The notes under the pieces: model-generated
Seen by the model: the letters and a program-made list of their open reading frames with translations, nothing else
Told to the model about the DNA's origin: nothing
The model's database searches: none
Assembly: GCA_965242865.1 (NCBI GenBank)
Contig: CBDETK010000013.1
Location: 4,800,001-4,864,000, forward strand
Length of the DNA stretch: 64,000 nucleotides
From: Candidatus Latescibacterota bacterium
GTDB lineage: Bacteria; Latescibacterota; UBA2968; UBA8231
Direction: 5' to 3'
Made by a program: the position numbers and the translations under genes
In this document: piece after piece, positions 28,978 through 42,502 of the stretch
Position numbering within the stretch: the stretch's first letter is position 1
How the letters are laid out: every line of letters starts with the position of its first letter

Positions 28978-29110
28978 CGAGTTCCGTCTTATCAGTACCA
29001 TAAATTTAACCCCTAGTGAGGAGCGGCGTTTTAGTTCGTCTGATTGTGCGAATCGGGCCTTTTTCGCTTTTTAGGGGTCGATTTTAACCCTTCAGAAAGG
29101 AGTTTGACCT

Positions 29111-29378
29111 ATGAGCACACCGACGATAGACCCAGATCGCGACCTTGAAGCAGATCGCCCGCTGCTTGGATGGGCTTGAAAGGCGGGTCGAGGCCCTTGA
29201 ACAAACCATGGCGACCGGATTTGCCGAACTGCGGCAAACCATCGCCTCGACCAATGAAGCCACCAACAACCGCATCGAGGCCACCAACAGCCGCATGGAC
29301 AAACAGTTTCGCTGGCTCATCGGCATTCAGTTTGGCATCATCGGTTTGCTTGTGACCATCCTCTTGAAAGGCGGCTGA
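29111..29378 (+). pseudogene. Coiled-coil protein with C-terminal TM helix, apparently frameshifted near 29131
   Basis: RBS AAGGAG plus ATG at 29111 is out of frame by one C (GACCCAG) with the 29145-29378 ORF ending FRWLIGIQFGII. Confidence 0.55.
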
Positions 29379-29523
29379 ACTATCGCTGCACCGGCCCAAC
29401 ATGGAATCGAGCGAAAGACCGCGAGCGGAACGTCGCCTAAAGACGAGATTATGAAAGATATCAACCGGAGCGACACATATTACACGTCGTCGCTCTTGAA
29501 GATCTAAGCCCTAGGATAGCAAG

Positions 29524-29916
29524 ATGGAGTCAAGCCCCCCTTACTTACTACACTCGGTCAGCGTCGTTACGGACGTTTACTCTATTGTAAGCGAAGCCAA
29601 GAAGCGCATATTGCATTTAGAAGAAGATTGGGACGCCGAAGGATGGCCGGCATACGAAGAAAAGACATTGGACGATGCTGCCGCATTTCTCTATAGGTTA
29701 GATCCTATGGAAGCGAAAAAGGTGCGAATCTTGCCAGCGAGTGGAGGCAGTATAGATCTGCACTGGAAGACGGAGGAGTTCGAGTTCTTGATCAATTTTA
29801 GTCCTGACGGCTCAGTTGACTACTACGGGGACGACTATAGCGGGAACTTAGTCCAAGGTGAAGCTCGTCCCAAGCCAGAGTTCATTGCCTGCTGGATGAA
29901 GTATACCAGTGAATAA
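29524..29916 (+). CDS. Acidic hypothetical protein (L..DWD.EG motif), putative antitoxin/immunity partner
   Basis: LEEDWDAEG..P.SGGSIDLHW; low GC; overlaps the next gene. Confidence 0.6.
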   Translation: MESSPPYLLHSVSVVTDVYSIVSEAKKRILHLEEDWDAEGWPAYEEKTLDDAAAFLYRLDPMEAKKVRILPASGGSIDLHWKTEEFEFLINFSPDGSVDYYGDDYSGNLVQGEARPKPEFIACWMKYTSE

Positions 29917-30283
29917 GTGGCCTGTAGAAGAAATACCGGATGGCGATGCGCTATACCATCGCGTCCACAGGAATGCGTTGCGCAAGATGCCTGCGGATAT
30001 GCCCAAAAACAAGGTGCCCCCCAATGCCTTCAGGATTGACGATGGGGATATGTCAGTTGATTGGTCGAGGTACGCAACCCCTCAAGAAGCTAAGAATCGA
30101 GCTAAAGTCCCTGCCAAAAATGGAATAGTTGAATTCACGGCTGGTGATGTGCGCGACGATGGCCATAGAGTAGTGCATTCCCCTTCCCGACATAATCAAG
30201 CCCATAGCTCTGTGCGCGGTGCTAAGGCTAGATTGCGGACTACCTTAAGTCGCGTCGCTCAATGGACGATAGAAATAACTTGA
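29909..30283 (+). CDS. Putative ADP-ribosyltransferase/RES-like fold toxin
   Basis: LYHRV..AF..MSVDW..V.H.P..N.AH pattern; basic 124-aa protein; low GC. Confidence 0.55.
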   Translation: MNKWPVEEIPDGDALYHRVHRNALRKMPADMPKNKVPPNAFRIDDGDMSVDWSRYATPQEAKNRAKVPAKNGIVEFTAGDVRDDGHRVVHSPSRHNQAHSSVRGAKARLRTTLSRVAQWTIEIT

Positions 30284-30313
30284 TAGCCATTGAGCTTCCC
30301 TAGCGGCCTTCCC

Positions 30314-30631
30314 TCACCCACCCGCGTCTAGCCCGCGAAAAAATTCAAACGTATAAATGCCGTGATCGTGTCCGTCGGCCCATTCGATGCGAAGGCCGTA
30401 GCGTCCGACGTAGCCAACCCCTCGCACTTCGGCCGTAGCCGACGCGGCCTCGGGCTGCAAAAGCGTCAACCCGCCCTCGGCTGCGTCGCGCAATTCCCGG
30501 CAGTGGGCGCAGGGACAGGCGCGCCGCAATCCCGCCAAGTCGTAGCGGCTCTCGCGGCCATTGCTCCACGCGATGACCAATTCACCGGCCCGGCCATCCA
30601 CGGCGATTTCGCGCGGCTTTGGCTTGTTCAA
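30314..30631 (-). CDS. DUF971/GBBH-like N-terminal domain protein
   Basis: LRRACPCAHC, VGRYG..I.W.DGHDHGIY. Confidence 0.88.
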   Translation of the reverse strand: MNKPKPREIAVDGRAGELVIAWSNGRESRYDLAGLRRACPCAHCRELRDAAEGGLTLLQPEAASATAEVRGVGYVGRYGLRIEWADGHDHGIYTFEFFRGLDAGG

Positions 30632-31947
30632 CGCGGCACTCCCACCACTTTAGCACTCAGCTCGTAGGGCGCGGCCGCGGTAATTTCCACCTCCACGAAA
30701 GAACCCACCGGCGGCGTACCCTCGGCGATGACGACTTGGCCATCGATTTCCGGGGCGTCGCGCTCCATCCGCCCGTAGCACACCGCCCCCTCGCGTGCGT
30801 CAACCAAGACGACCTGCCGCGTGCCCACGAGCCGGTCGTTTTTCTCCGTGCCCACGCGCTCTTGCAGTTGCGTCAGGCGGCTGTAGCGCTCCTGCTTGAC
30901 CTCCTCGGCGACCGGGTCGCCCAGCGCGTGCGCGGTCGTGCCCTCTTCCGGCGAGTAGAGAAAGCCGGTTGCGTAGTCAAAGCGCGTCTCGGCCACGAAC
31001 TCCAGCAGGGCGGCAAAATCCGCTTCGGTCTCGCCGGGGAAGCCCACGATGAACGTCGAGCGCAGCCCGGCCCCCGGCAGCCGCGTCCGCAGGCGCGCCA
31101 GCAAATCGAGCGTCTTTTGGCGGGTCGTCGCTCGCTTCATGCGCTTGAGCACTGGGTCGGCAATGTGTTGCAGCGGCATGTCGATGTACCGGCACATTTT
31201 GTCGCAGGTGGCGTAGAAGTCGATCAGTTCTTCGGTCCAGAACGCTGGATAGGTGTACATCAGGCGCAGCCACGCAATGCCTTCCACTTCGGCGAGCGCG
31301 GTTAGGAGGCGCACGAGTTGCGGCCGGCCGTAGAGATCGGCTCCGTAGCGCACGGAATCCTGCGAGACCAAAACCAGCTCCCGCACGCCATTCGCGGCCA
31401 GCCGCTCGGCTTCGGCCACGAGTGCTTTGATTGGCTCGCTTGCGTGTCGCCCGCGAATGGCGGGGATGGCGCAAAAGGCGCATTGGTGATCGCAGCCATC
31501 GGATATGCGCAAGTACGCCCAGTGCTGGGGCGAGAGCAAAGCCCGCGGCAGATCGGTTTGGTAGCCGGACCGAGCCGTGCCCAGCGCGTCGTCCACGTGG
31601 CGGACGATGTCGGCCTCGTCGGCTATCGTCAGCAGCTTGTCGGCCTCCCACAGCTCCTGTGCTAGCTCTTCGCGGTAGCGCGTCGCCAAGCAGCCGGTGA
31701 CAATGACGCCTTTGCATTGGCCGGTTGCTTTGAGGCGATGGGCGTCCATAATTGCGGCGAGGGACTCTTCTTTGGCTGGCTCGATGAAGCCGCAGGTATT
31801 GACCACCACTACTTCGGCTTCTTCTGGGGCGTCGGTTAGCTGATAGGCGTGGCCTTGGAGGAGGCCGAGCATGCGCTCGGAATCGACCGCGTTTTTGGGG
31901 CAGCCTAGGCTGACGAGGTGAACTTTGTGGGGTTGGTTTTTGTTCAT
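30628..31947 (-). CDS. rimO: Ribosomal protein S12 methylthiotransferase
   Basis: SLGCPKN.VDSE, NTCGFI, CDHQCAFC radical-SAM motif, APEIDG TRAM domain. Confidence 0.96.
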   Translation of the reverse strand: MNKNQPHKVHLVSLGCPKNAVDSERMLGLLQGHAYQLTDAPEEAEVVVVNTCGFIEPAKEESLAAIMDAHRLKATGQCKGVIVTGCLATRYREELAQELWEADKLLTIADEADIVRHVDDALGTARSGYQTDLPRALLSPQHWAYLRISDGCDHQCAFCAIPAIRGRHASEPIKALVAEAERLAANGVRELVLVSQDSVRYGADLYGRPQLVRLLTALAEVEGIAWLRLMYTYPAFWTEELIDFYATCDKMCRYIDMPLQHIADPVLKRMKRATTRQKTLDLLARLRTRLPGAGLRSTFIVGFPGETEADFAALLEFVAETRFDYATGFLYSPEEGTTAHALGDPVAEEVKQERYSRLTQLQERVGTEKNDRLVGTRQVVLVDAREGAVCYGRMERDAPEIDGQVVIAEGTPPVGSFVEVEITAAAPYELSAKVVGVPR

Positions 31948-31967
31948 TATGGATTCGGTGTGGATGG

Positions 31968-34358
31968 CTAGTAGTCGCCGTAACGGCGCAACAACTTTGC
32001 TGTTTTACCTTTTGCGCGGAGTATTGGTGATCTGTCCACAAATATACCTTTGCCGGCGTTGACGTCGGCTCCGTTTTTAAGTAGGACTTCGGCGACCTCA
32101 TAAGCGTTTGCAGATGCTGCAAAATGCAGCGGCGTATCGCCATCCTCGTCCTCCGCGTTGACTTTGGCTCCGTTTTTAAGTAGGACTTCGGCGACCTCAT
32201 AAGCGTTTGCACCCGCCGCCACATGTAGCGGCCTATCGCCATCTTCATCCTCCGTGTTGACTTTGGCTCCGTTTCGTAGCAAGACTTCGGCGACCTCATA
32301 AGCGTTTGCACCCGCCGCCACATGTAGCGGCGTAAAGTCTTTATCGCCCTTGGCGTTGACTTTGGCTCCGTTTTTGAGTAAGACCTCGGCGACCTCACAA
32401 GCACTGGCATACGCCGCCAAATGCAGCAGCGTAAGGCCCTCCTCGTCCTTGGCGTTGACTTTGGCTCCGTTTCGTAGCAAGACTTCGGCCACCTCACAAG
32501 CATTTGCCAACGCCGCAGCATGTAGCGGCCTACGGCCTTTATCGTCCTTGGCGTTGACTTTGGCTCCGTTTTTGAGCAAGACTTCGGCGACCTCATAAGC
32601 ATTGGCCAACGCCGCCAAATGCAGCAGCGTATCGCCATCCTCGTCCTTGGCATTGACGTCGGCTCCGTTTTGTATCAAGACTTCGGCCACCTCACAAGCG
32701 TTTGCAGACACCGCAGCACACAGCGGCGTATCGCCCTCCTCGTCCTTGGCGTTGACTTTGGCTCCGTTTTGTATCAAGACTTCGGCCACCTCACAAGCAT
32801 TTGCCAACGCCGCAGCATGCAGGGGTGTATTATCTGCACACTCATAATCGTCATCGTCGCTTTCCATTTTATTTAAAAATGCCGTAAGGTGCGGCGAGAT
32901 ATTGGCATGTAACGTGGCCTTCGCCTCGATGTCCGCCCCCTGATCCAGCAGGGATTGAGCGAGTGCAGGCAGGTTTAGCTGCACAGCATGATGCAGGTCG
33001 GTCACGCCTTTGTTGTACACTATATCCGGGGATGGATTGCGACCCACCTTCTCAACAAATTCCGCCTTCTCTCTCGCTTCTGCCTCTTCGCGCACCGTTC
33101 GTTCCGGGCTTGCAAGGTTTAGCGACCGGAAAATTTCATCCACTGCACTGAGCATCTTTTGCCGGATCACTCCCATCTGCTCCTTAATGGGCGCGAAATC
33201 TCGCTTTTGCGATTCTATCAGCTTGCTGACTTTTTCCCCTAAAACGTCCGCATCGTCAGCGCTCAACTCAGAAAGATGAAAGTCGATATCTGTGAGCTCG
33301 GTTGTCATCCACTTGGCCGTCCGTTCGTCTTTGAGAATGGCATTTGCATACATTTCAAAGACGTCATCAATCTCTTGCTTCAATTCCGCGCTCGCTCCTT
33401 GGGGCTGGTTTTGTGCGCGGAAAAAGTCCTCTAACGACTGCTCGTCGTAGAAGAATTCCTCGCCGCGCCGGGAGCTATACACGCTGATTCCGCAAGGCTC
33501 AATATCCGCGTCGGTCAGCGCGTTTTTCACCTCGTCCAGAATAGCCTCCAATTCGCCGCGCGGCTTGATATCCGCCTTGTTCAAAACCACGTATAACGGC
33601 AATGACCCCAACTCCAAATCCGCCAGAAATTCCAGATCCTCCTCGGGAACCGTGCCCGTCGCGTCTAGCCCAATCATCCAAATAAGCGCGTCCCGATCCT
33701 TGAGAAAAGCAGCGGCCGTCGTCCGGTCGTCGCTGCGGCCCCCCGGATTGTAGCCCGGCGTGTCGATCAAGCAGATGTTGGCAAACAGGTTGTCGCGCAA
33801 AGGAACCTCTACCGTGATGGAGGGCATGATGTGCTTGAGATTGAAGGAGAAGGTGTCGATGAAATTGTGGGACAGTTGGGAATACAGGGCCGGGTCAATA
33901 TCCACCGTATCGCCGCTGCGAGAAAAGCCCTTAATCGCCATCTCCGAATTGGCCATGACAAACGAAGGAATGGCCGTGGCCGGTTCGATTCGCTCCGGCA
34001 GCAAACGGTCGTATCCCTCGATAAAGCTATTGACGAAAGCCGACTTGCCGCTGCTGAACCCGCCGCCGATGGCAATGGCTCGCTTGGCGGAAAGGTGTGG
34101 AAAGGCGACGAGTTCCTTGAGCCGCTCGGTCAGCCGTTCCAAGCGCTCTATGGCGGTCGCTTCCTCAGCCAACGACGACTCCGCATCGGCAAACTCCCGA
34201 AACTCCCCGTTCAAGAGGGTCTCGAACTGCTTAAATTCTACGTGTTCATTGGGTTTGGCGGTGAGCAGATCGGAGACCAGTTTGTACTTTTTCTGCAAGT
34301 CCTCATGCTCTGAACGCAACCGAGCCGCGTCCTCTGCGACGAACGTACTCTCAGCCAT
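31968..34358 (-). CDS. Dynamin-like GTPase fused to a C-terminal ankyrin repeat array
   Basis: G1 GGFSSGKS, G3 DTPG, G4 NKAD; helical stalk; N-cap plus eight 33-aa ankyrin repeats plus C-cap. RBS AAGGAG; start overlaps the upstream stop. Confidence 0.88.
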   Translation of the reverse strand: MAESTFVAEDAARLRSEHEDLQKKYKLVSDLLTAKPNEHVEFKQFETLLNGEFREFADAESSLAEEATAIERLERLTERLKELVAFPHLSAKRAIAIGGGFSSGKSAFVNSFIEGYDRLLPERIEPATAIPSFVMANSEMAIKGFSRSGDTVDIDPALYSQLSHNFIDTFSFNLKHIMPSITVEVPLRDNLFANICLIDTPGYNPGGRSDDRTTAAAFLKDRDALIWMIGLDATGTVPEEDLEFLADLELGSLPLYVVLNKADIKPRGELEAILDEVKNALTDADIEPCGISVYSSRRGEEFFYDEQSLEDFFRAQNQPQGASAELKQEIDDVFEMYANAILKDERTAKWMTTELTDIDFHLSELSADDADVLGEKVSKLIESQKRDFAPIKEQMGVIRQKMLSAVDEIFRSLNLASPERTVREEAEAREKAEFVEKVGRNPSPDIVYNKGVTDLHHAVQLNLPALAQSLLDQGADIEAKATLHANISPHLTAFLNKMESDDDDYECADNTPLHAAALANACEVAEVLIQNGAKVNAKDEEGDTPLCAAVSANACEVAEVLIQNGADVNAKDEDGDTLLHLAALANAYEVAEVLLKNGAKVNAKDDKGRRPLHAAALANACEVAEVLLRNGAKVNAKDEEGLTLLHLAAYASACEVAEVLLKNGAKVNAKGDKDFTPLHVAAGANAYEVAEVLLRNGAKVNTEDEDGDRPLHVAAGANAYEVAEVLLKNGAKVNAEDEDGDTPLHFAASANAYEVAEVLLKNGADVNAGKGIFVDRSPILRAKGKTAKLLRRYGDY
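32060..32835 (-). repeat. Eight tandem 99-bp ankyrin-coding repeats
   Basis: Recurrent GTTGACTTTGGCTCCGTTT..GACTTCGGCGACCTCA at a 99-bp period. Confidence 0.95.
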
Positions 34359-36549
34359 TATCAATCTCCTTCAATTCAGCGCTAAGACGGGTGATTCGCC
34401 CCAACTCCATGGTCTTATTTGCAATCGACTTTTCAAGTGAGGCGAGTTCCTTCTCAAACTTTTCCAGCAACCGCGTATCTAAATCAACGCGCCCCATCTC
34501 GGCGGTGAGATCATCAATGTACTCAAGCACCTCCTTGCGAAAGTCTCGACAAAACTTCGTAGAATAGTCGCATGCCTGTTGAAAAAATTTCTCCGCGTCC
34601 TCCCCTTCCAATACCCCTTGAGAAGTTAGGGTTGCTGGCAGTTGGATATTGTAGGTGAATGGTGAAACGGATATGGAGTTGACGGCATTTTTGATGATCT
34701 CGCGGACCCTCCATGCTTCTATCTCTTCATCGCCCAATTCTCGTCGCAAAATTTTGGTAAGCTCCCCATTGAGTCGCGCCCGCCACTGGTCCTTTTGGGC
34801 ATCTGTTTTCTCCGCAACCGTCTCCACCATTTCTTCACAAGACTTCGCCAAGCTCTCAACGACAGCGTTCGTGCGGATAGTCTCAATCCTTATACATTTC
34901 GTCCTCTTAAAGATGCCGGTTTGAAACGTTCTAGATGTTACGCCTCTTGTTCCATCTAAATCCGCTCGTAGCTGCCGATCGCGCCTTCCCAGTTCCTTCT
35001 TAAACTGGTCTTTCAGTTCTTTATTGGTCTGGTTGACCAATTCCTCGTGCGCCTCGCGAATGAGAAACGCCGTCTTTTCCAGCGACTTGAGCAAGCTGTC
35101 GCGCCGCTTCTTAAAGCTCTCAATCTCCATGTGCTCAATTTGGGTATGCCGCTCGTTCGCATACTTGAGGAGGCCGTTCTTTAGCTCGTGCAGCGACTGG
35201 AGCTTGGCGGCGATGTACTCTGTTTGTCGGGTCTTGATGATGGCGTCCTTTTGTTCGCGCACAGTGGCGACGATTTCCCGAATGCGCGATATGTTGGACA
35301 GCTTATCCAGACTGATACGCGATAATTCTGCATTTTCAGCCGAGAAATAGTTTTGATACTCAGCCAACAAATTGCCCCAAGCATGCTGCATCCCCTCGTC
35401 CCACTCATCTTTCTGCTCAAAACGCTGCTTCAGGCTTTCGCAAATGCCCGCCGTGTGAATGATTTTACCTCGCTCAAGCAACGGATCGTACGTATCGCCC
35501 ACTTCGGGATTGCGCTCCTTCAAATCGTCAATGACCTGCTCCAGATGGCTGCCAAGCACCTCCGTAGTGAGGCGGTCCAACGCACGATCCAAATTCCCGT
35601 TGCTCTCATCCTGCAAATTGCCGTAAAGCTGCATATCGGCTTGCGACGCCACCACGTATAGCTCGCGGATGCCTTCCTTCCCAGTGATGCGATCCATCAG
35701 GTTCAGATCCACGGTAGTCATAAACTGACCGGCCGGACTGACGATCAACACCACATCGCATTGACGCAGATGTTGTTGGGTGCGCTCCTCACGCGACCGA
35801 ACCGGATCGTTAATCCCCGGCGTATCCACAATTTCTATATCCCGCAAATTCTCTTGCGGCAACCGAATGTTGACGCTTTTGGTAACGGGCATGTAGCGGC
35901 CGGTCGCGCCGACGTAATCATCCAGTTGGTGCCGCAAATCGGCAAGCCTTGCCCATTGGAGCACGGTCTTTTCCTCGAGCGTTCCGATGTTGAGCATGGA
36001 CTTTTCGATCTTATCGTATTGATCATAAGCGGCGATCAAGGCGTCGTTGCCCTCCCTCATCGCCCGCTTCGCCCTGCTGCTCGCCCGCTCTTCTGGAGAT
36101 CGGCGCGCCCGAATTTCTTTTGCTCGTTCTTCGGTTAGAAATTTCTCGTAGAGCCGCTCTTCTCGCGTCTTGTATTCGCGGTACTTGTCCCTAATATGCC
36201 GTAAGTCCTCTTGGGTAAAAAACTCCACTTCCGCCGCTGGGCTTTCGCCATAAGAAAGCGTCGTCAAGGCCGCCGTCATGGGAGTTGCCGCCTTGGGCAG
36301 AATGCTTTCCCCCTGAAAGAGCAGGGCGTTTAGCAGCGAAGATTTTCCCGATTTGACCCGCCCCACAACGCCGATCTTGAGTAGGCGATTTTCACCTTCA
36401 ATGGCCGCCAGACTTGCTTGCAACTCCTTGGCCGCGGGAACGCCGTGTTCTTGAGCGAGGCTTGCCGCTTCATCCCCAAGAAAATCCTCATAGCGACCTA
36501 CGACCCGCTCCAGCTCGTCCCTATACGCGACGATTCCACTGTGTTCCAT
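34351..36549 (-). CDS. Dynamin-like GTPase (LeoA/CrfC-like)
   Basis: G1 GRVKSGKS, TPMT, G3 DTPG, long coiled-coil C-terminus; RBS AAGGAGG. Confidence 0.88.
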   Translation of the reverse strand: MEHSGIVAYRDELERVVGRYEDFLGDEAASLAQEHGVPAAKELQASLAAIEGENRLLKIGVVGRVKSGKSSLLNALLFQGESILPKAATPMTAALTTLSYGESPAAEVEFFTQEDLRHIRDKYREYKTREERLYEKFLTEERAKEIRARRSPEERASSRAKRAMREGNDALIAAYDQYDKIEKSMLNIGTLEEKTVLQWARLADLRHQLDDYVGATGRYMPVTKSVNIRLPQENLRDIEIVDTPGINDPVRSREERTQQHLRQCDVVLIVSPAGQFMTTVDLNLMDRITGKEGIRELYVVASQADMQLYGNLQDESNGNLDRALDRLTTEVLGSHLEQVIDDLKERNPEVGDTYDPLLERGKIIHTAGICESLKQRFEQKDEWDEGMQHAWGNLLAEYQNYFSAENAELSRISLDKLSNISRIREIVATVREQKDAIIKTRQTEYIAAKLQSLHELKNGLLKYANERHTQIEHMEIESFKKRRDSLLKSLEKTAFLIREAHEELVNQTNKELKDQFKKELGRRDRQLRADLDGTRGVTSRTFQTGIFKRTKCIRIETIRTNAVVESLAKSCEEMVETVAEKTDAQKDQWRARLNGELTKILRRELGDEEIEAWRVREIIKNAVNSISVSPFTYNIQLPATLTSQGVLEGEDAEKFFQQACDYSTKFCRDFRKEVLEYIDDLTAEMGRVDLDTRLLEKFEKELASLEKSIANKTMELGRITRLSAELKEIDNG

Positions 36550-36692
36550 TTCGTCCCTCCTTATAGCCGTCCTAAACGCCTTGAAAGCATAGAATGTTCA
36601 TCGACACCGTCTTTTTGCCTACGAGGCGTCATTTGAATGTACCGCCTAAACGCCGACCACTCAAGCTATCTGCCGGTCAACGCCGACCGCGC

Positions 36693-37246
36693 TCACAGCG
36701 GCATGTACTCCAGCCCAAAGACCCGCTCGACAAACCAACCCACCCCAAAAAGCCCAATCACGGCCGACACCACCAAGACGACCGTGCGCTGATAAGGCCG
36801 CCGACTGAGCCAAGCAACCAACGGAAAGACCAGCGCGACAATACCCACTTGGCCGATTTCCACGCCGGCGTTGAACGCAAACAGCGAGGCGACCAGCCCG
36901 TGCGTGGGCAGCCCCAACTCGCGCAGCACATTGGCGAAGCCAAATCCGTGGACCAGCCCAAAGGCAAAGGTGATCATCCAGCGGTAATCCGGGCGCTTGA
37001 GCCAGAAATTTTCCGCCGCCACGTACACGATGCTCAAGGCGATGGCCGCCTCGATCCACTCGCTCGGCAGACGGACGATTTCGAGGGCCGCCAAGCAGAG
37101 GGTGATGCTGTGGGCCACGGTAAAGGCCGTGACGACCTTGACCAGACTGAGCAGCCGACCGCCGACCACAATCAGTGCCAACCAAATTCGTATAACTGGT
37201 ATTGAGCTTGTGGGCGCGAGCTGGAGTGGGGGCGGCCAAAAACAGC
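36693..37246 (-). pseudogene. HupE/UreJ family protein remnant (internal deletion)
   Basis: TAFTVAHSITL, IE..IALSI, FGLVHGFGFA, FNAGVEIGQ. A signal-peptide end (PARAH..SY) is joined out of frame. Confidence 0.75.
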
Positions 37247-37331
37247 GGAATGTCGCAACGCAGGGCGATTTGCTTTTGCGCGGCCGCTTGGCTGACCGAA
37301 CCAACGGACGCATCGATCAAGGGCTTTAGTA

Positions 37332-38217
37332 ACCAATGGTGCTAGTCTGTTGACCGTGGTCCCGGTAGTTCCTACGCTGAGAGTATCCACCCTTTCAGCC
37401 CCGGAGCGTCCTGATGACCACGGCCGAGTTTATAATAGCCCTGTTCTACCGCATTGACAATCAAATGCTTGACGTGCCGAAACATCCGCAAGCGTCCCTA
37501 TACCCCAGTGAGGTGGTCACCTTAGGGATGTTGTATGCGCTCAAAGGCGGGGGTAAACGGGCGTTTTACCGCTGGCTGGTGCGGGACTGGCACGCTTGGT
37601 TCCCGCGCCTGCCGTCGCGCACGCGCTTGTTCCGCCTCTTCGCCGCCCATGCCGATTGGACCGACCGCTTCCGCGCCGAGCCGACGCCGTTAGGGGTGGT
37701 CGACAGCTATGGCATTGAGTTGATCCATCCGGTGCGTCAGGGTCGGGCACAGCACTCCCTCGGAAAGAAAGGGCTCTCCAATCACCGCTGGATCGTCGGC
37801 GGTAAGCTCTGCGTTATCGTCAATCAGTGGGGGCGGATCGTCGATTGGGATTGGAACACGGCATAAGTCCACGATTCGGTCTTTCATCCGATGATCCGAC
37901 GCTTCCAACAGCAAATGATCGTCCTCAGCGACCCAGGCTTTCATGCCAAAACCGGCGATCCGGCCAATCTGAAAGTCTGTCCTCGCAACACGTGGAACGA
38001 GCGGATGCTCATTGAGACCGTCTTTTCCATGCTCACCCGAATTAGCCGCTTTAAGCAGCAGACCCATCGGGCTTGGGCGTATTGTACTGCCCATCTCAGC
38101 TTTGCCATGGCCGCCTTCAACCTGCTGGTGCAGTGGCATGGAAGGCAGTCCGATGAAAACGGATTCGTCCCGTTGTCTATCGCCGAGTTCGGATTGTAAA
38201 ACACTAGCACCATTGGT
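37332..38217 (+). mobile_element. IS982 family insertion sequence
   Basis: Inverted repeats ACCAATGGTGCTAGT and ACTAGCACCATTGGT; 5-bp target-site duplication TAGTA (37327-37331, 38218-38222). Confidence 0.85.
37414..38199 (+). pseudogene. IS982-like transposase with an in-frame stop at 37864
   Basis: SEVVT, FPRLPSRTR, VVDS, GGKL, A*VHD, SD.GF, R..IETVFS. Confidence 0.8.
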
Positions 38218-38313
38218 TAGTAGGCAAGGGACCCGCTCGACTTCGAGTTGGTCCGACTCCAGCCGCGACAGGTCGAGCAAGTCGCCGAGCATTGCCATGA
38301 TTTCTGCCTCTTG

Positions 38314-38592
38314 CTAGTGGTAATCGACCAAGTCAACGTCGTACGCGTCGCCTTCTTCAAAGCGGAAGCTGATCTGCCAGTTGGCGGAAATCGAGATGCT
38401 CCAAAACTCTTTTAGATCGCCTTTCAGAGGGTGAAGTCGATATCCTGGTAAATTGAGATCCGATGGCTTGCTCGCGTCGTCGAGGTCCGCCAAAGCGAGT
38501 GCGATCCGTTGTGCCTGATCAGCACGTACTTGGCTCATATCTCCGCGCTCATACAACCGCTTGAGGCCGCGGTGTCGAAACGTCCAAATCAC
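38314..38592 (-). CDS. higB: HigB (RelE/ParE superfamily) toxin, orphan
   Basis: FRHRGLKRLY, PGYRLHPLKGD, WSI.ISANWQI.FRF, VDYH. Confidence 0.9.
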   Translation of the reverse strand: MIWTFRHRGLKRLYERGDMSQVRADQAQRIALALADLDDASKPSDLNLPGYRLHPLKGDLKEFWSISISANWQISFRFEEGDAYDVDLVDYH

Positions 38593-38699
38593 AAATAAAG
38601 TCTGTCTAACTTCCCGCCTTTTTATGCTTGCTCTCAGCATGCATCTGTCGGCGAAAGGGAGGGGCTAGATTGTATCCTTGCTTAGACACTCCTTGATCA

Positions 38700-39165
38700 C
38701 GCAAGCACTGGAGCAACTCTCTTGCTTTCAGCACCTTCCTCACCAAAATTCGCGCCCAGTACTTGGGGCACGATGCCGCATCCGGCCGGGCGTGCGATCC
38801 CCTGCCGGAGCAATGCGAAAGAACGCTGGCAAGGCTGGCCGAGCTCGATGCAAAAAAAGCGATGGCCTTGCGCCGATATTTCAGCGAGATGTCCGCCGTG
38901 ATTGCGGAGATGCAGCGGGTTTTGAAAAAAGGCAAGGCGGCCGTGATTGTCGTCGGCACTTCGCATCTGCGCGGCATAGATGTCGAGACGCAAAAGGGGC
39001 TTGCCGCCATTGGCAAAAGCGTCGGTTTTGATTTGGCCGGAATCGGCGTCCGCCGCTTGGACCGCGACAAGCGCATGATGCCAGCGCGCTTGGGGCACGA
39101 AACGCCACTCGCAGATTGAGCAACGGATGCACGAAGAGTACGTGATTGGATTGGTGAAATCGTAA
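38700..39165 (+). pseudogene. C-terminal remnant of an amino-type DNA methyltransferase
   Basis: RYF.EM..V..EM.RVLK.GK.AVIVVG, DRDKRMMP, MHEEYVI; frameshifted and 5'-truncated. Confidence 0.65.
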
Positions 39166-39431: not shown

Positions 39432-39610
39432 ATCTTGAATGATGTAGCGTTGCTATATATCTGGAGATTGAGCCTTTGACGTAAGAACATCTACGACCAA
39501 AGATGTGGCAAAAAATAGATGTTTTTACAACGAAAGTGGAGTTACACAGCACAATGGGTTGCCTTTGTTGCTGGTTCCCGCCCACCATGTACCGTACGGA
39601 GAAAACACCT

Positions 39611-40723
39611 ATGAGTAAGGAAGCCCGCGCACTGTACGCGGCTATGGGGGCGACGCCCGTGATCAACGCCCTCGGCCCGCGCACCCTCTTAGGGGGATCG
39701 TCCCCCCACCCGGACATCATCGCCGCGATGGAACTGGCCGGCCGCTACTACGTTGATATGGATGCCTTTTTGGCGAGCACCGGGCGGGTCGTCGCCGACC
39801 TGCTCGGGGCCGAGGCCGCGCTGATTACCCCGGGCTGCGCGGCCGCGTTGGTCCTCGGCACGGCCGCTTGCATAACCGGCGTAGATCCGGAGAAAATGGC
39901 CCGCTTGCCCGATGCGACCAGCATGCCCAACCAAGTGGTCATCCAAAAGGCCCAACGCTACAAATACGACCGCATGGTGCGCCTGCCCGGGGCCACCCTC
40001 GTGGAGGCGGGCACCGAGCAGGGCACCACAGCCGACGAGCTGGCCGCAGCTTTTGGCCCCCAAACGGCCGCCCTCCTCTACCCGGCCATCGACACCCCAG
40101 CCGCCATCGTCCCGCTGGCCGAGGCCATTGCCATCGCCCACGCCCACGACGTGCCGATCTTCGTGGATGCGGCCTTCCGCGTCTATCCCCTAGCCGGCTT
40201 AACCCAATACATCGCGGCCGGGGCCGACTTAGTTGGCTACGGGGCCAAGTACGTGGGCGCGCCCAATTCTTCGGGCATCCTCTGCGGCCGCGCCGACTTA
40301 ATCGAAGCCGCCCACCTGCACAGCTTTGCCTGCTTTGAAACCCGCGACCTAGAAGGGGTTGGCCGCCCGCTCAAAATCGACCGCCAAGAAGTCGTCGGCG
40401 TGGTCGTGGCCCTGCGCCGCTGGCTGGCCATGGACCACGACGCCCGCAACCGAGGCGACGCCCGCCGCGCCGAGACCGTGCGTCAGCACTTGGGCCAACT
40501 GCCCCACGTGCAAAGCTCGGTCGATGGCGCGTCCCTGACGCTGACCTTGGACGAACCAGCCCTCGGCCGCACCGCGGCCGACCTAGAAAAAGCCCTGCGC
40601 AACGGCAATCCCTCGGTCTGGCTCTCAGCGGCCCCGGGCCAACTTCACTTGTCCATGCCCACCGTGGCCGACGGGGATGAGGAGCTTTTGGCCACGCAAT
40701 TGAAGAAGGCGTTAAGTGGTTAG
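39611..40723 (+). CDS. SelA-like PLP-dependent enzyme (DgaE-related)
   Basis: PVINALG..TLLGGS, VDAA, GADLV.YGAKY.GAP, GRPLKIDRQE. Confidence 0.82.
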   Translation: MSKEARALYAAMGATPVINALGPRTLLGGSSPHPDIIAAMELAGRYYVDMDAFLASTGRVVADLLGAEAALITPGCAAALVLGTAACITGVDPEKMARLPDATSMPNQVVIQKAQRYKYDRMVRLPGATLVEAGTEQGTTADELAAAFGPQTAALLYPAIDTPAAIVPLAEAIAIAHAHDVPIFVDAAFRVYPLAGLTQYIAAGADLVGYGAKYVGAPNSSGILCGRADLIEAAHLHSFACFETRDLEGVGRPLKIDRQEVVGVVVALRRWLAMDHDARNRGDARRAETVRQHLGQLPHVQSSVDGASLTLTLDEPALGRTAADLEKALRNGNPSVWLSAAPGQLHLSMPTVADGDEELLATQLKKALSG

Positions 40724-40732
40724 TGGGCTGGG

Positions 40733-42502
40733 ATGAGCACGCCCCAACAACAGGCCGAGGCTCTCGCGGCCGGGCTGTATGACCATCAGATCGAGGGCAT
40801 CGCCTTTTTGTTGGGTCGCCAGCGGGCGATCCTCGCCGACGACATGGGGTTGGGCAAGACGCGGCAGTCCGTGCTGGCCATGCGCCAAGCCCGCCCGGAG
40901 GGGCCGTACCTAGTCGTCTGCCCGGCTGCGGTTAAGACCAACTGGGTGCGCGAGATCGAATGGGTGCTGCCAGCGGCCGAGGTCGCCATCGTCGGCCCCG
41001 CACCCGCGCCGGCCCCCGGTTATAGCGGCTGGGTCGTCATCAACTACGACATCCTCGCCAAACACCCGCTGACAGCCCACGCTTGGAGCGGCTTAGTCTT
41101 TGACGAGGCCCACTATCTCAAAAACTACCGCAGCCAACGGCACCGCCTGTCGCTGGACTTGGTCAAAGCCGTTGGCGACGAGGCGGTGGTCCACCTTTTG
41201 ACCGGCACGCCGCTGACGAGCCGGCCGCGCGATCTCTTCCCCTTGTTGCAGTTGGTGCGCCACGCGCTCGGGCGTTCGTTCGTCGCGTTTGCCAAACGCT
41301 ATTGCGACGGGTACAAAGGCGACTACGGCTGGGTGGCCGATGGGGTCTCCAATATCGACGAATTGACCGTGCAGTTGCACGGCATCATGCTGCGCCGCAC
41401 CAAGGCCGAGGTGCTCGACCTGCCGCCCAAGATCCGCAGTTGGCTCGACGTGGAGGTCGCCAGCCGGGTGGCGCGCGAGATGAGCGAGGCGGTGATGGAG
41501 CTGTTGCACACCATCTCGCGCCGGGGCCGAGCCGAGCTCGCTGGCGAGACCGAGGCGGAGCGTCGCTCGCGCCAAGGCTGGATCATGGGCCAGCTAACCA
41601 CGGCGCGCAACCGCTTGGCCAGCACCAAGGTCCGCAGCACAATTCCCTTTGTGGAAAACGCGCTCGAACAGGGCGAGAAGGTGCTGGTCTTCTCGTGTTT
41701 TCTGGCGCCGGTCAACACGCTGCGCAAACACTTTGGCCCGCAGGCAGTCGCCATCACCGGCGAGGTGCCGGCGAGCGAGCGGCAACGCCTAGCCGACCGC
41801 TTTCAGCAGGACGACTCCGTGCAGGTGCTGGCCGCGCAGATTACGGCTGGGGGCGTCGGGCTCAACCTCACGGCCGCTCGGCAAGTGGTCTTCAACGATC
41901 TCGACTGGGCGCCGATTAACCACTGGCAGGCCGAGGACCGGGCGTACCGCATCGGGCAACGGCAAGCCGTGAACGTCACCTATATGGTCGGCAGCGGGAC
42001 CATCGACGAGTTCGTCAAGACGGTCCTCGAGACCAAGTCCACGCTGATCGACCAACTCGTCGAAGGCAGTGCCTTGCCCGAACACTTCCAGCGCGACGTG
42101 ATGGACGAGTTGCGGCGCGTAATGGAAGCGCTGCCCGCACCGTCCACTGGCGAGATGGGCGAGCGGCAAGTGGTGGAACTGTTGCGCGAGGCCGGGGCGG
42201 CCTTTGTCGCCGAGCAGCCTGCCGTTGATGCGCTGACCAAGGCGCGCTTGCCGTCGGCCGAGGCGGTGCGCGCGTTGGCCCGGGTGTTGGCCGGGCCGGA
42301 ACGGGCCTTGTACCGGGTGGATAGCTCGTCCAAGCCGGGGGCGTTCTACGAGCTGGAGGCGGTGGGAAGCGATGTAAGTTGCAGTTGTAAGGGGTTTGCT
42401 TATCGGGGGATTTGCCAACATGCGCGGGCGCTGAAGGAGGCGTTGGTCAAGGGGGAGGGCTTGCCGGAGGGATTTGTCGCCGGCCGTCAAGCCCCCGCTT
42501 AG
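40733..42502 (+). CDS. SNF2-family helicase with C-terminal SWIM zinc finger
   Basis: LADDMGLGKT, DEAH, LTGTP, GVGLNLT, QAEDRAYRIGQ; C-terminal CSCKGF..RGICQH. Confidence 0.9.
   Translation: MSTPQQQAEALAAGLYDHQIEGIAFLLGRQRAILADDMGLGKTRQSVLAMRQARPEGPYLVVCPAAVKTNWVREIEWVLPAAEVAIVGPAPAPAPGYSGWVVINYDILAKHPLTAHAWSGLVFDEAHYLKNYRSQRHRLSLDLVKAVGDEAVVHLLTGTPLTSRPRDLFPLLQLVRHALGRSFVAFAKRYCDGYKGDYGWVADGVSNIDELTVQLHGIMLRRTKAEVLDLPPKIRSWLDVEVASRVAREMSEAVMELLHTISRRGRAELAGETEAERRSRQGWIMGQLTTARNRLASTKVRSTIPFVENALEQGEKVLVFSCFLAPVNTLRKHFGPQAVAITGEVPASERQRLADRFQQDDSVQVLAAQITAGGVGLNLTAARQVVFNDLDWAPINHWQAEDRAYRIGQRQAVNVTYMVGSGTIDEFVKTVLETKSTLIDQLVEGSALPEHFQRDVMDELRRVMEALPAPSTGEMGERQVVELLREAGAAFVAEQPAVDALTKARLPSAEAVRALARVLAGPERALYRVDSSSKPGAFYELEAVGSDVSCSCKGFAYRGICQHARALKEALVKGEGLPEGFVAGRQAPA

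Follow-up and report, generated by a model that had tools for sequence, protein, structure and literature searches.

A dynamin-like GTPase pair with an ankyrin tail in a Latescibacterota genome belongs to a conserved three-gene cassette

Bacterial dynamins are known as pairs of proteins that tether or repair membranes, and one type of pair, Eleos, protects against phage. A two-gene dynamin system acting in defence has been described (10.1101/2022.05.11.491447), and DynA of Bacillus subtilis has been linked to phage resistance (PMC8844932, PMC12998192). Cj-DLP1 and Cj-DLP2 of Campylobacter jejuni are encoded by adjacent dynamin-like protein (DLP) genes in one operon (PDB 5OWV/5OXF; PMC6104087). 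Here, two adjacent genes of this kind, DLP1 and DLP2, were analysed in a stretch of 64,000 nucleotides from a Candidatus Latescibacterota genome (contig CBDETK010000013.1), called the window throughout. Coordinates are window positions unless another contig or locus is named, and both genes lie on the minus strand. DLP2 ends in an array of ankyrin (ANK) repeats. The two genes are part of a conserved three-gene cassette, for which a conflict system directed against phage or other invaders is the most likely role, with a probability of roughly 0.45. An earlier note made from the letters of this stretch had taken the tail-bearing protein for a membrane-remodelling effector carrying a recognition module, and had considered membership of Eleos. 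That interpretation is partly supported.

The DLP0-DLP1-DLP2 cassette

Relatives of DLP1 were collected by scanning one genome per species. Of the 510 relatives found, the best 80 loci were kept, and the 77 of these with a DLP1 open reading frame (ORF) form the base for the gene-order counts. An ORF with a DLP2 core follows DLP1 directly at 73 of the 77 loci, two of the remaining four lying at contig ends. At 64 of them DLP1 comes after DLP0, a third dynamin-like gene whose product has about 570 aa. The pair in the window is two thirds of this conserved DLP0-DLP1-DLP2 cassette. The pair described earlier is thus correct for the two genes present, while the full unit has three, of which DLP0 was lost here. 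Carriers include Helicobacter pylori, Campylobacter, Neisseria, Pseudomonas, Burkholderia, Treponema, Fibrobacter and Thiothrix. Among the best 80 loci, the nearest DLP1 relatives are encoded on chromosomes of two Candidatus Latescibacterota metagenome-assembled genomes (MAGs), with 75% and 73% identity. An exhaustive profile search with the DLP2 core gave 819 cluster representatives at E <= 1e-30. Within the phylum the core was present in 11 of 168 genomes, and 6 of the 31 genomes of the genus have it. When viral contigs were scanned with the same profile, 40 pattern matches came up, none of them confirmed, which weighs neither way.

DLP1 is a full-length bacterial dynamin-like GTPase. It was matched by Pfam Dynamin_N with E 8.3e-24 and 84.9 bits (cut-off 27 bits), and its AlphaFold2 (AF2) model, with a predicted local distance difference test score (pLDDT) of 84.2, has a GTPase, neck and trunk fold with a tip element. 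The matches to this model in Foldseek were SynDLP (E 4e-15), BDLP (1.9e-13) and Cj-DLP1/2 (1.6e-11), together with IniA and mitofusins, over a range extending to 1e-7. The best solved relative by sequence was chain 5owv_A (E 3e-14; profile 1.6e-17), over the GTPase region only. GRVKSGKS, T92, DTPG and SQAD are invariant or nearly so across 63 relatives. The fold suggests that DLP1 does mechanical work on a membrane, a basic β-hairpin at the trunk tip being the sole indication of membrane binding (Table 1). The model also contains a three-helix insert at residues 113-183, which might stand in for the assembly domain of Cj-DLP1. No PADLOC model matched DLP1 at E <= 0.01.

The second protein is built differently. 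Dynamin_N matched DLP2 with E 4.8e-9 and 36.9 bits, and the other Pfam GTPase signals alongside it were of the MMR_HSR1 and GTP_EFTU type, with none of the NACHT/NB-ARC type. Its motifs GGFSSGKS, T130, DTPG and NKAD are invariant or nearly so in 88 relatives; residues G101, G106, K107, S108, T130, D201, P203 and G204 are invariant in the 88 sequences. The motifs that had been reported for the two GTPases (GRVKSGKS/DTPG and GGFSSGKS/DTPG/NKAD) were all found. The AF2 model of DLP2 (pLDDT 89.7, and 94-98 in the array) consists of three N-terminal helices (2-92), the GTPase (95-318), four helices (324-440) and the ankyrin region from residue 456. It has no trunk, stalk or paddle, the helices outside the GTPase and before the ankyrin region being only those at 2-92 and 324-440. 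Since the model holds a GTPase with one helical bundle and neither trunk nor paddle, the reading of the tail-bearing protein as the membrane-remodelling effector is unsupported. No solved relative of the core was found in the PDB, either with the single sequence or with the profile, which retrieved generic GTPases only (EngB at 1.3e-5, Der, Era and EHD2). Foldseek with the whole DLP2 model listed ankyrin proteins alone.

By hydropathy alone, which is a crude measure, neither DLP1 nor DLP2 has a hydrophobic or transmembrane segment or a signal-like N-terminus; in the export test the maximum 19-residue hydropathy was 1.36, and the N-terminus was an acidic helix.

DLP0 is closest by sequence to Cj-DLP2 (chain 5owv_C, 8.5e-7). 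Therefore, the cassette seems to combine a pair of the Cj type (DLP0 and DLP1) with a further GTPase, truncated and bearing the tail. DLP2 probably starts at the ATG at 34358, which has AGGAG 7 nt before it and overlaps the DLP1 stop by 8 nt, ATGGCTGA. Because of this overlap, translational coupling of DLP1 and DLP2, which had been proposed before, is plausible.

The exchangeable tail of DLP2

The N-cap, eight repeats and C-cap ascribed earlier to the second protein are all present, with exact 33-residue spacing and helix pairs in the AF2 model. Pfam Ank and Ank_2-5 matched at E 1e-41 to 1e-60, Ank itself at 5.2e-60 in eight stretches. The array has what defines ankyrin repeats, namely the 33-residue spacing, the TPLH and helix-turn-helix framework and the capping units, and it is 40-48% identical to designed ankyrin repeat proteins (DARPins; E 1e-22, Foldseek). 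In the DNA, Tandem Repeats Finder gave a 99-bp period with 7.8 copies and 82% matches. A repetitive frame of 558 aa, rich in Arg, Pro and Cys, is open in another frame of the minus strand at 30977-32653, through the ankyrin repeats into rimO; it almost certainly arises as a side effect of the repeat array and is not a gene.

The tail differs among relatives of the core. ANK tails are found in 63 and HHH tails in 20 of the 120 listed relatives of the DLP2 core; a Gemmatimonadota record is also among these relatives. Direct scans confirmed two to four HHH_3 stretches, ANK with FGE-sulfatase, ANK with SWIB, and N-terminal coiled-coil extensions. A further 27 long-tailed representatives, new to the study and drawn from 150 listed, gave four WG, four Sel1, three TPR, one HEAT, one FGE-sulfatase and one biotin-lipoyl-like tail. 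The survey of swapped tails suggested in the earlier note is thus positive, with ANK, HHH_3, Sel1, TPR, WG, HEAT, FGE-sulfatase and SWIB at this place.

Tail changes were mapped on a quick IQ-TREE tree of the core (88 rows, 429 columns). For this, 87 of the 120 listed relatives were taken, near-duplicates, the chimeric P0059 and the partial P0103 being omitted; tail labels were precomputed Pfam matches, some of the rows labelled "none" being partial proteins. The ANK label changed at least 5 times (3 forced by well-supported branches) and the HHH label at least 10 times (8 forced). In line with the earlier view of a recognition module added to a GTPase, the ankyrin array behaves as an exchangeable module on a conserved GTPase core. 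P0059 is a protein of 715 aa on a contig of 4170 nt, in which the C-terminal two thirds of DLP1 (97% identical) are joined to the N-terminal part of DLP2 (95%); it is likely to reflect either a frameshift or read-through at the overlapping stop and start or a natural fusion.

The tail also diverges faster than the core. In the closest orthologues the cores are 92-95% identical and the tails 63-74%, with tail lengths of 261-456 aa; variation in protein length was seen on megabase contigs too. Across 212 repeats from 36 proteins the most variable repeat positions were 5, 10, 2, 1, 3 and 13, on a nearly invariant framework, and they sit on the face formed by the β-turn and first helix. Four of these six (2, 3, 5 and 13) are positions randomised in DARPin libraries.

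Among the 77 loci, ankyrin tails occur only in four Latescibacterota loci. The genome itself holds 114 Ank_2 matches in about 40 ankyrin ORFs. Clusters of adjacent ankyrin ORFs at 478-483 kb, 4704-4711 kb and 5099-5102 kb of G000:C13 suggest local tandem expansion of ankyrin genes.

Integrity, site and damage of the locus

The earlier note had named an assembly chimera, in which a GTPase gene and an ankyrin gene were joined in error, as a possible undoing of the fusion. Short-read contigs do stop inside the repeat array, as expected since it is made of repeats, and array stretches without contig cover in X4-X6 carry no evidential weight. The fusion nevertheless recurs: 63 of the 120 relatives listed have it, the independent contigs that carry them reach 4 Mb, and it is syntenic in the two named Latescibacterota chromosomes. 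In the window the junction of core and ankyrin region (near 33011) is bridged by X1 record 7, which covers 32790-34068 (1279 nt) with 0 differences, and by X5 record 18 (32918-33319); the DLP1/DLP2 junction is bridged by X1 record 8 and X5 record 20. X1 may be the source sample itself, and X5 comes from an independent study. A chimera was rejected, its probability being negligible.

In the two Latescibacterota chromosomes the gene order is a 370-aa gene, DLP0, DLP1, DLP2-ANK, rimO, a DUF971-like gene and a gene for a 689-aa protein. Their rimO is 87% identical to that of the window, and their DLPs are 73-75% identical. All five same-genus single-contig genomes examined have an empty site with the same flanks, rimO lying beside the gene block headed by the 370-aa gene; in L111, which has no cassette, the 370-aa gene ends 22 nt before rimO. 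Since genomes without the DLP genes keep the same flanks joined, the three genes are a precise insertion or deletion between rimO and the 370-aa gene. The cassette sits in the same orientation as the operon-like gene row ending in rimO. When filled and empty sites were compared by eye, neither a target-site duplication nor an integrase was seen. The lower-GC insert beside rimO noted before is confirmed, with a GC content of 0.50-0.55 in the cassette against 0.61-0.69 in the window flanks, and with same-genus genomes that lack it. GC below that of the flanks was also found in L010 and at the locus of the second cassette described below.

Synteny of the window ends at the end of DLP1, to the right of which no ORFs are shared with L010 or L011. 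A HupE/UreJ gene, a transposase fragment with a weak match and a gene for a HigB-like toxin stand in the place of DLP0, which was lost from this cassette by rearrangement. The debris of insertion sequences, toxin-antitoxin and restriction-modification genes described earlier thus holds for the toxin; the DDE fragment is weak, and the supposed restriction-modification ORF at 38763-39119 had no Pfam match. The sole trace in the genome of a DLP0 of the window type is its first 127 residues, about 166 kb away and fused in frame to two ankyrin repeats. This ORF of 183 aa (G000:C13:4667082-4667635; L006:1354-1905, +) runs from P-loop to switch 1, is 62% identical to the DLP0 of L010, and is probably the broken-off start of the missing first gene. 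The former right-flank gene of the cassette now lies at about 250 kb.

A second, complete cassette of paralogues is present in the same genome at G000:C13:1661-1668 kb (L009:5653-11674, -), beside genes for signal peptidase, the proteasomal ATPase and Pup ligase. It encodes DLP0' (573 aa), DLP1' (734 aa) and DLP2'-ANK (692 aa), with 41-51% identity to the window pair. Going by ORF sizes alone, L014 and L015 may have a cassette at this site too.

The loss of DLP0, with only a displaced N-terminal piece left and the former flank gene moved, raises the question of whether the window cassette is a non-functional relic whose two remaining genes are drifting. This seems quite unlikely, as both ORFs are intact with all GTPase motifs, their orthologues are 91-96% identical on many contigs, and the genome has, at another place, a gene for DLP0', which is 58% identical to the lost type and might substitute.

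Table 1. Features of the DLP1-DLP2 locus and its surroundings, in window positions
Feature	Residues	Position	Strand	Description and basis
DLP1		34351-36549	-	732 aa, full-length bacterial dynamin-like GTPase; Pfam, AF2, Foldseek
DLP1 G1, GRVKSGKS	63-70	36340-36363	-	motif read
DLP1 G3, DTPG	242-245	35815-35826	-	motif read
DLP1 G4, SQAD	302-305	35635-35646	-	motif read
DLP1 basic β-hairpin at trunk tip	533-560	34870-34953	-	net charge +4 in an otherwise acidic protein; AF2
DLP1/DLP2 junction		34351-34370	-	AGGAG Shine-Dalgarno 34366-34370; ATG 34358; DLP1 stop TGA 34351-34353
DLP2(-ANK)		31968-34364	-	798 aa counted from TTG; short dynamin-like GTPase with ankyrin array
DLP2 core	1-440	33045-34364	-	Pfam, AF2
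DLP2 G1, GGFSSGKS	101-108	34041-34064	-	motif read
DLP2 G3, DTPG	201-204	33753-33764	-	motif read
DLP2 G4, NKAD	262-265	33570-33581	-	motif read
Ankyrin N-cap unit with insertion	452-507	32844-33011	-	AF2 helix pairs 456-474 and 491-499
Eight ankyrin repeats	508-771	32052-32843	-	each exactly 33 residues; net charge -23
Basic ankyrin C-cap and TAG stop	772-798	31968-32051	-	net charge +6
rimO		30628-31947	-	starts 20 nt past DLP2 stop; conserved flank; Radical_SAM/UPF0004
Synteny break, DLP0 position in relatives		36550-38640	.	Pfam
HupE/UreJ gene		36693-37313		Pfam
DDE transposase fragment, weak		37414-37866		Pfam E 0.004, below cut-off
HigB-like toxin		38314-38640		Pfam E 1.1e-15

Two other stretches of the window are recorded here. 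At 29000-30300, between the gene for the 689-aa protein and the DUF971-like gene, lies a low-GC (0.51) stretch of about 1.3 kb; the matching gap in L010 is about 490 bp. It holds small ORFs at 29145-29378 and, overlapping each other, at 29524-29916 and 29909-30283; the overlapping two had no Pfam match and could be a toxin-antitoxin-like pair. Just past the patch with the transposase fragment and HigB, 39503-42502 encodes a SelA-like pyridoxal phosphate enzyme (E 1.9e-5), followed by a 589-aa SNF2-family helicase with a C-terminal SWIM zinc finger.

Role of the cassette and comparison with described systems

A conflict system is favoured because the cassette is patchily distributed, behaves as a unit of insertion or deletion, carries a swappable tail that diverges faster than its core, and stands outside the phylum in a context of WYL regulators and defence genes. 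This context was scanned at 16 of the 77 loci, a non-random choice made for full flanks and taxonomic spread. The 141 flank ORFs of these loci from other phyla match 115 PADLOC families, among them PglZ (E = 0), BrxL (1e-280), a type I restriction endonuclease (5e-168), ATPases of the AriA/mad type (4 ORFs) and WYL (7 ORFs). Judged by ORF length alone, the BREX genes would lie in L024, where two large downstream ORFs fit PglZ and BrxL, and the type I restriction endonuclease in L056. Six of seven upstream genes are regulators of the HTH-WYL-WCX type, and of the 56 loci with sufficient flanking sequence, 14 have a WYL homologue on the same strand no more than 4.5 kb upstream of DLP1 (L018, L024, L029, L035, L040, L042, L047, L051, L058, L071, L076, L087, L088 and L089, from Proteobacteria and one Phycisphaerae MAG). 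BrxR-type WYL regulators are described as adjoining known defence systems in 48% of cases (PMC9122601).

In the mechanism that we propose, both proteins are cytoplasmic. DLP1, with its basic trunk tip, would be the mechanical dynamin acting on a membrane, and DLP2 would be a recognition or adaptor subunit, with its ten-unit ankyrin solenoid as the exchangeable ligand-binding module. The ankyrin groove would bind a protein ligand, and GTP-dependent association of DLP2 with DLP1, and with DLP0 where present, would bring the dynamin machine to the ligand or switch it on there. The tail would then be a diversifying sensor, with a logic like that of NLR and STAND proteins on a dynamin chassis. Subunit binding, membrane action, ligand and role are all inferred. 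A wider proposal is more tentative than the conflict role itself. It holds that the DLP0-DLP1-DLP2 cassettes make up a widespread, hitherto undescribed family of immune systems built on dynamins, often under BrxR-type WYL control, in which the third GTPase is a pattern-recognition subunit with swappable tails (ANK, TPR, Sel1, WG, HEAT, FGE-sulfatase, HHH), and that the ankyrin sensor of the sponge symbiont diversifies by repeat shuffling against phage or host ligands.

Several observations weigh against a conflict role. The surroundings of the Latescibacterota copies are of a housekeeping kind (shikimate pathway, tRNA synthetases, oxidoreductases, Pup-proteasome), a WYL gene is absent, and each PADLOC family matched at most one of their 49 flank ORFs. 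These 49 were used out of 68 listed, the others being 11 ORFs of L011 (duplicates of L010), three of L009 that had already been scanned, the DLP0 of L014, and four of L015 (12952-13659, 13621-15312, 15324-16865 and 17063-17818). Lack of enrichment in defence islands, which the earlier note would have held against its own reading, is thus seen for the Latescibacterota copies; elsewhere WYL, BREX and type I restriction genes lie nearby. WYL regulators are also said, from studies of DriD, to control genes outside defence. Neither DLP1 nor DLP2 matches PADLOC defence models beyond matches driven by the ankyrin repeats. The neighbour scans had no matched control set, and PADLOC includes generic ATPase and helicase models. 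Any ankyrin family typically varies on the β-turn and first helix, repeat number could have shifted through neutral slippage, and, with so many ankyrin ORFs in the genome, fusions to ankyrin repeats may just be common in this lineage. Low GC could come from proteins rich in Lys, Glu and Ile and not from foreign origin, and the window locus, having no DLP0, may be decaying. Prediction of a complex between DLP1 (1-420) and the DLP2 core (1-450) scored 0.31 against a mark of 0.32, with controls not run, and was used neither for nor against binding.

Two other roles were weighed; both rank behind the conflict system, and both are unlikely. The one placed next is a membrane machine for housekeeping or stress, in which the three DLPs would repair or remodel the cytoplasmic membrane, as is thought for DynA and Cj-DLP1/2, and the tail would anchor them to a lineage-specific scaffold such as the nucleoid, the divisome or envelope proteins. 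The Latescibacterota flanks fit this, including those of the second copy, which has signal peptidase and Pup-proteasome genes as neighbours and whose site seems, from ORF sizes, to be kept in L014 and L015. The placement of the cassette within the operon-like row fits it too. HHH_3, SWIB and IF2_N tails suggest contacts with nucleic acid or the nucleoid, and the family is large and broad. A housekeeping machine would be harder to reconcile with patchiness within one genus and with empty sites, with repeated swaps of a tail whose divergence outpaces that of the core, and with the WYL regulators and defence genes that accompany the cassette in other phyla.

The other, placed last, is a symbiosis factor. 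The dynamin pair would help form vesicles or remodel the envelope, so that the ankyrin module is displayed to host cells or handed over to them; escape from digestion would be one possible benefit. The organism is sponge-associated and ankyrin-rich, and the named relatives that come nearest to it are Latescibacterota MAGs. In runs labelled "sponge metagenome" 26-48% of the sampled words are present (runs X10-X22, with small word shares, being excluded from the habitat reading), and X5 contigs match the locus at 95-99%. No RNA run was listed among those that contain the locus. Ankyrin tails are confined to the Latescibacterota among the 77 loci. Sponge Latescibacterota MAGs are described as carrying ANK and other eukaryote-like repeats (PMC12993501), single eukaryote-like proteins as letting bacteria escape phagocytosis by sponge cells (PMC13747020), LeoA and LeoB as promoting vesicle release (PMC4159319), and cj0411 is called a colonisation factor (PMC6104087). 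Against delivery to a host stand the lack of a signal peptide or hydrophobic segment by hydropathy and the need of a GTPase for cytoplasmic GTP. Moreover, close relatives carry DNA-binding HHH_3 arrays at the same position, Sel1, TPR and WG tails occur in bacteria of many lifestyles, and most genomes of the genus are without the cassette.

If DLP2 directs the dynamin machine to a specific target, the cassette would show how a mechanochemical GTPase gains specificity and would be a bacterial counterpart of the logic of Mx, GBP and NLR proteins. The family would offer testable cassettes from harmless, culturable Proteobacteria, such as those of Pseudomonas lactis (L033) and Marinobacter (L024), and at least one ankyrin protein of a sponge symbiont, of a kind usually assumed to face the host, would have an intracellular role.

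The fusion had been taken as undescribed, and this agrees with the literature searched: in a search that was incomplete, no description was found of a dynamin-ankyrin fusion or of a third DLP that swaps tails, and neither PMC7159879 nor PMC9122601 uses the word dynamin in its main text.

Eleos, for which a defence-association score of 60% is reported, and LeoABC of enterotoxigenic Escherichia coli (4AUR) resemble the cassette in their tandem dynamin-like GTPases, their accessory distribution and a proposed or shown role in defence. An Eleos identity for this locus would also draw on LeoA (4aur) at rank 42 of the DLP1 fold search (E 5.7e-6) and on a marginal match of the DLP2 core to LeoBC (E 0.0051, 14 bits, 70 residues). 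DLP1 and its paralogue, however, have no match to LeoA, LeoB or LeoBC in PADLOC even at E <= 5, and only DLP0', of the type missing from the window, matches in part (LeoA 2.6e-10, LeoBC 2.3e-8). Eleos is described as a two-gene unit, LeoBC followed by LeoA, against three genes in another order here, and the passages of the cited papers describe no repeat tail for it. Since the PADLOC LeoA and LeoBC models do not match DLP1 and barely touch DLP2, the locus is not a member of Eleos; that identity was rejected, with scarcely any probability left to it.

The heterotypic Cj pair shares the fold and the arrangement of adjacent genes, Cj-DLP1 and DLP1 are of similar length (chain 5owv_A has 732 residues), and a gene of the Sel1 type (HcpA-like) is said to belong to the C. 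jejuni operon, a parallel to the repeat tails here (PMC6104087). Similarity to DLP1 is confined to the GTPase region. Cj-DLP1 is described as having a 119-residue assembly domain that receives helix 1 of its partner (PMC6104087), whereas DLP1 has only about 55 residues before the P-loop; its residue 53 aligns to residue 159 of 5owv_A, so that about 100 N-terminal residues, and with them a counterpart of the assembly domain, are missing. The Cj pair also has two GTPase genes against three here, with the tail-bearing DLP2 lacking a trunk and a solved relative. Nostoc BDLP1 (2J68/2J69) and Synechocystis SynDLP (7ZW6), the top fold matches of DLP1, have the same GTPase, neck and trunk, but at 13-16% identity and with a hydrophobic paddle in place of the basic β-hairpin tip. 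DynA has more than one GTPase module and a phage-protection phenotype (PMC8844932, PMC12998192), but it is one fused protein with a housekeeping role and has no repeat tail, and the NCBIfam DynA model matched only at E 1e-5 and 23.6 bits (cut-off 1600).

The tail has its own relatives. Ankyrin proteins of sponge symbionts and DARPins have the same consensus-like 33-residue repeats with caps; here the array is fused to a GTPase, and sponge association and repeat richness go together with no secretion signal detected by hydropathy. STAND and NLR-type receptors differ in having a NACHT or NB-ARC core where the cassette has a dynamin-like TRAFAC GTPase, to which no death or nuclease effector is fused. 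What they share with it is the plan of a conserved NTPase core with swappable modules, among them TPR, ANK, WD-like and FGE-sulfatase (PMC7159879).

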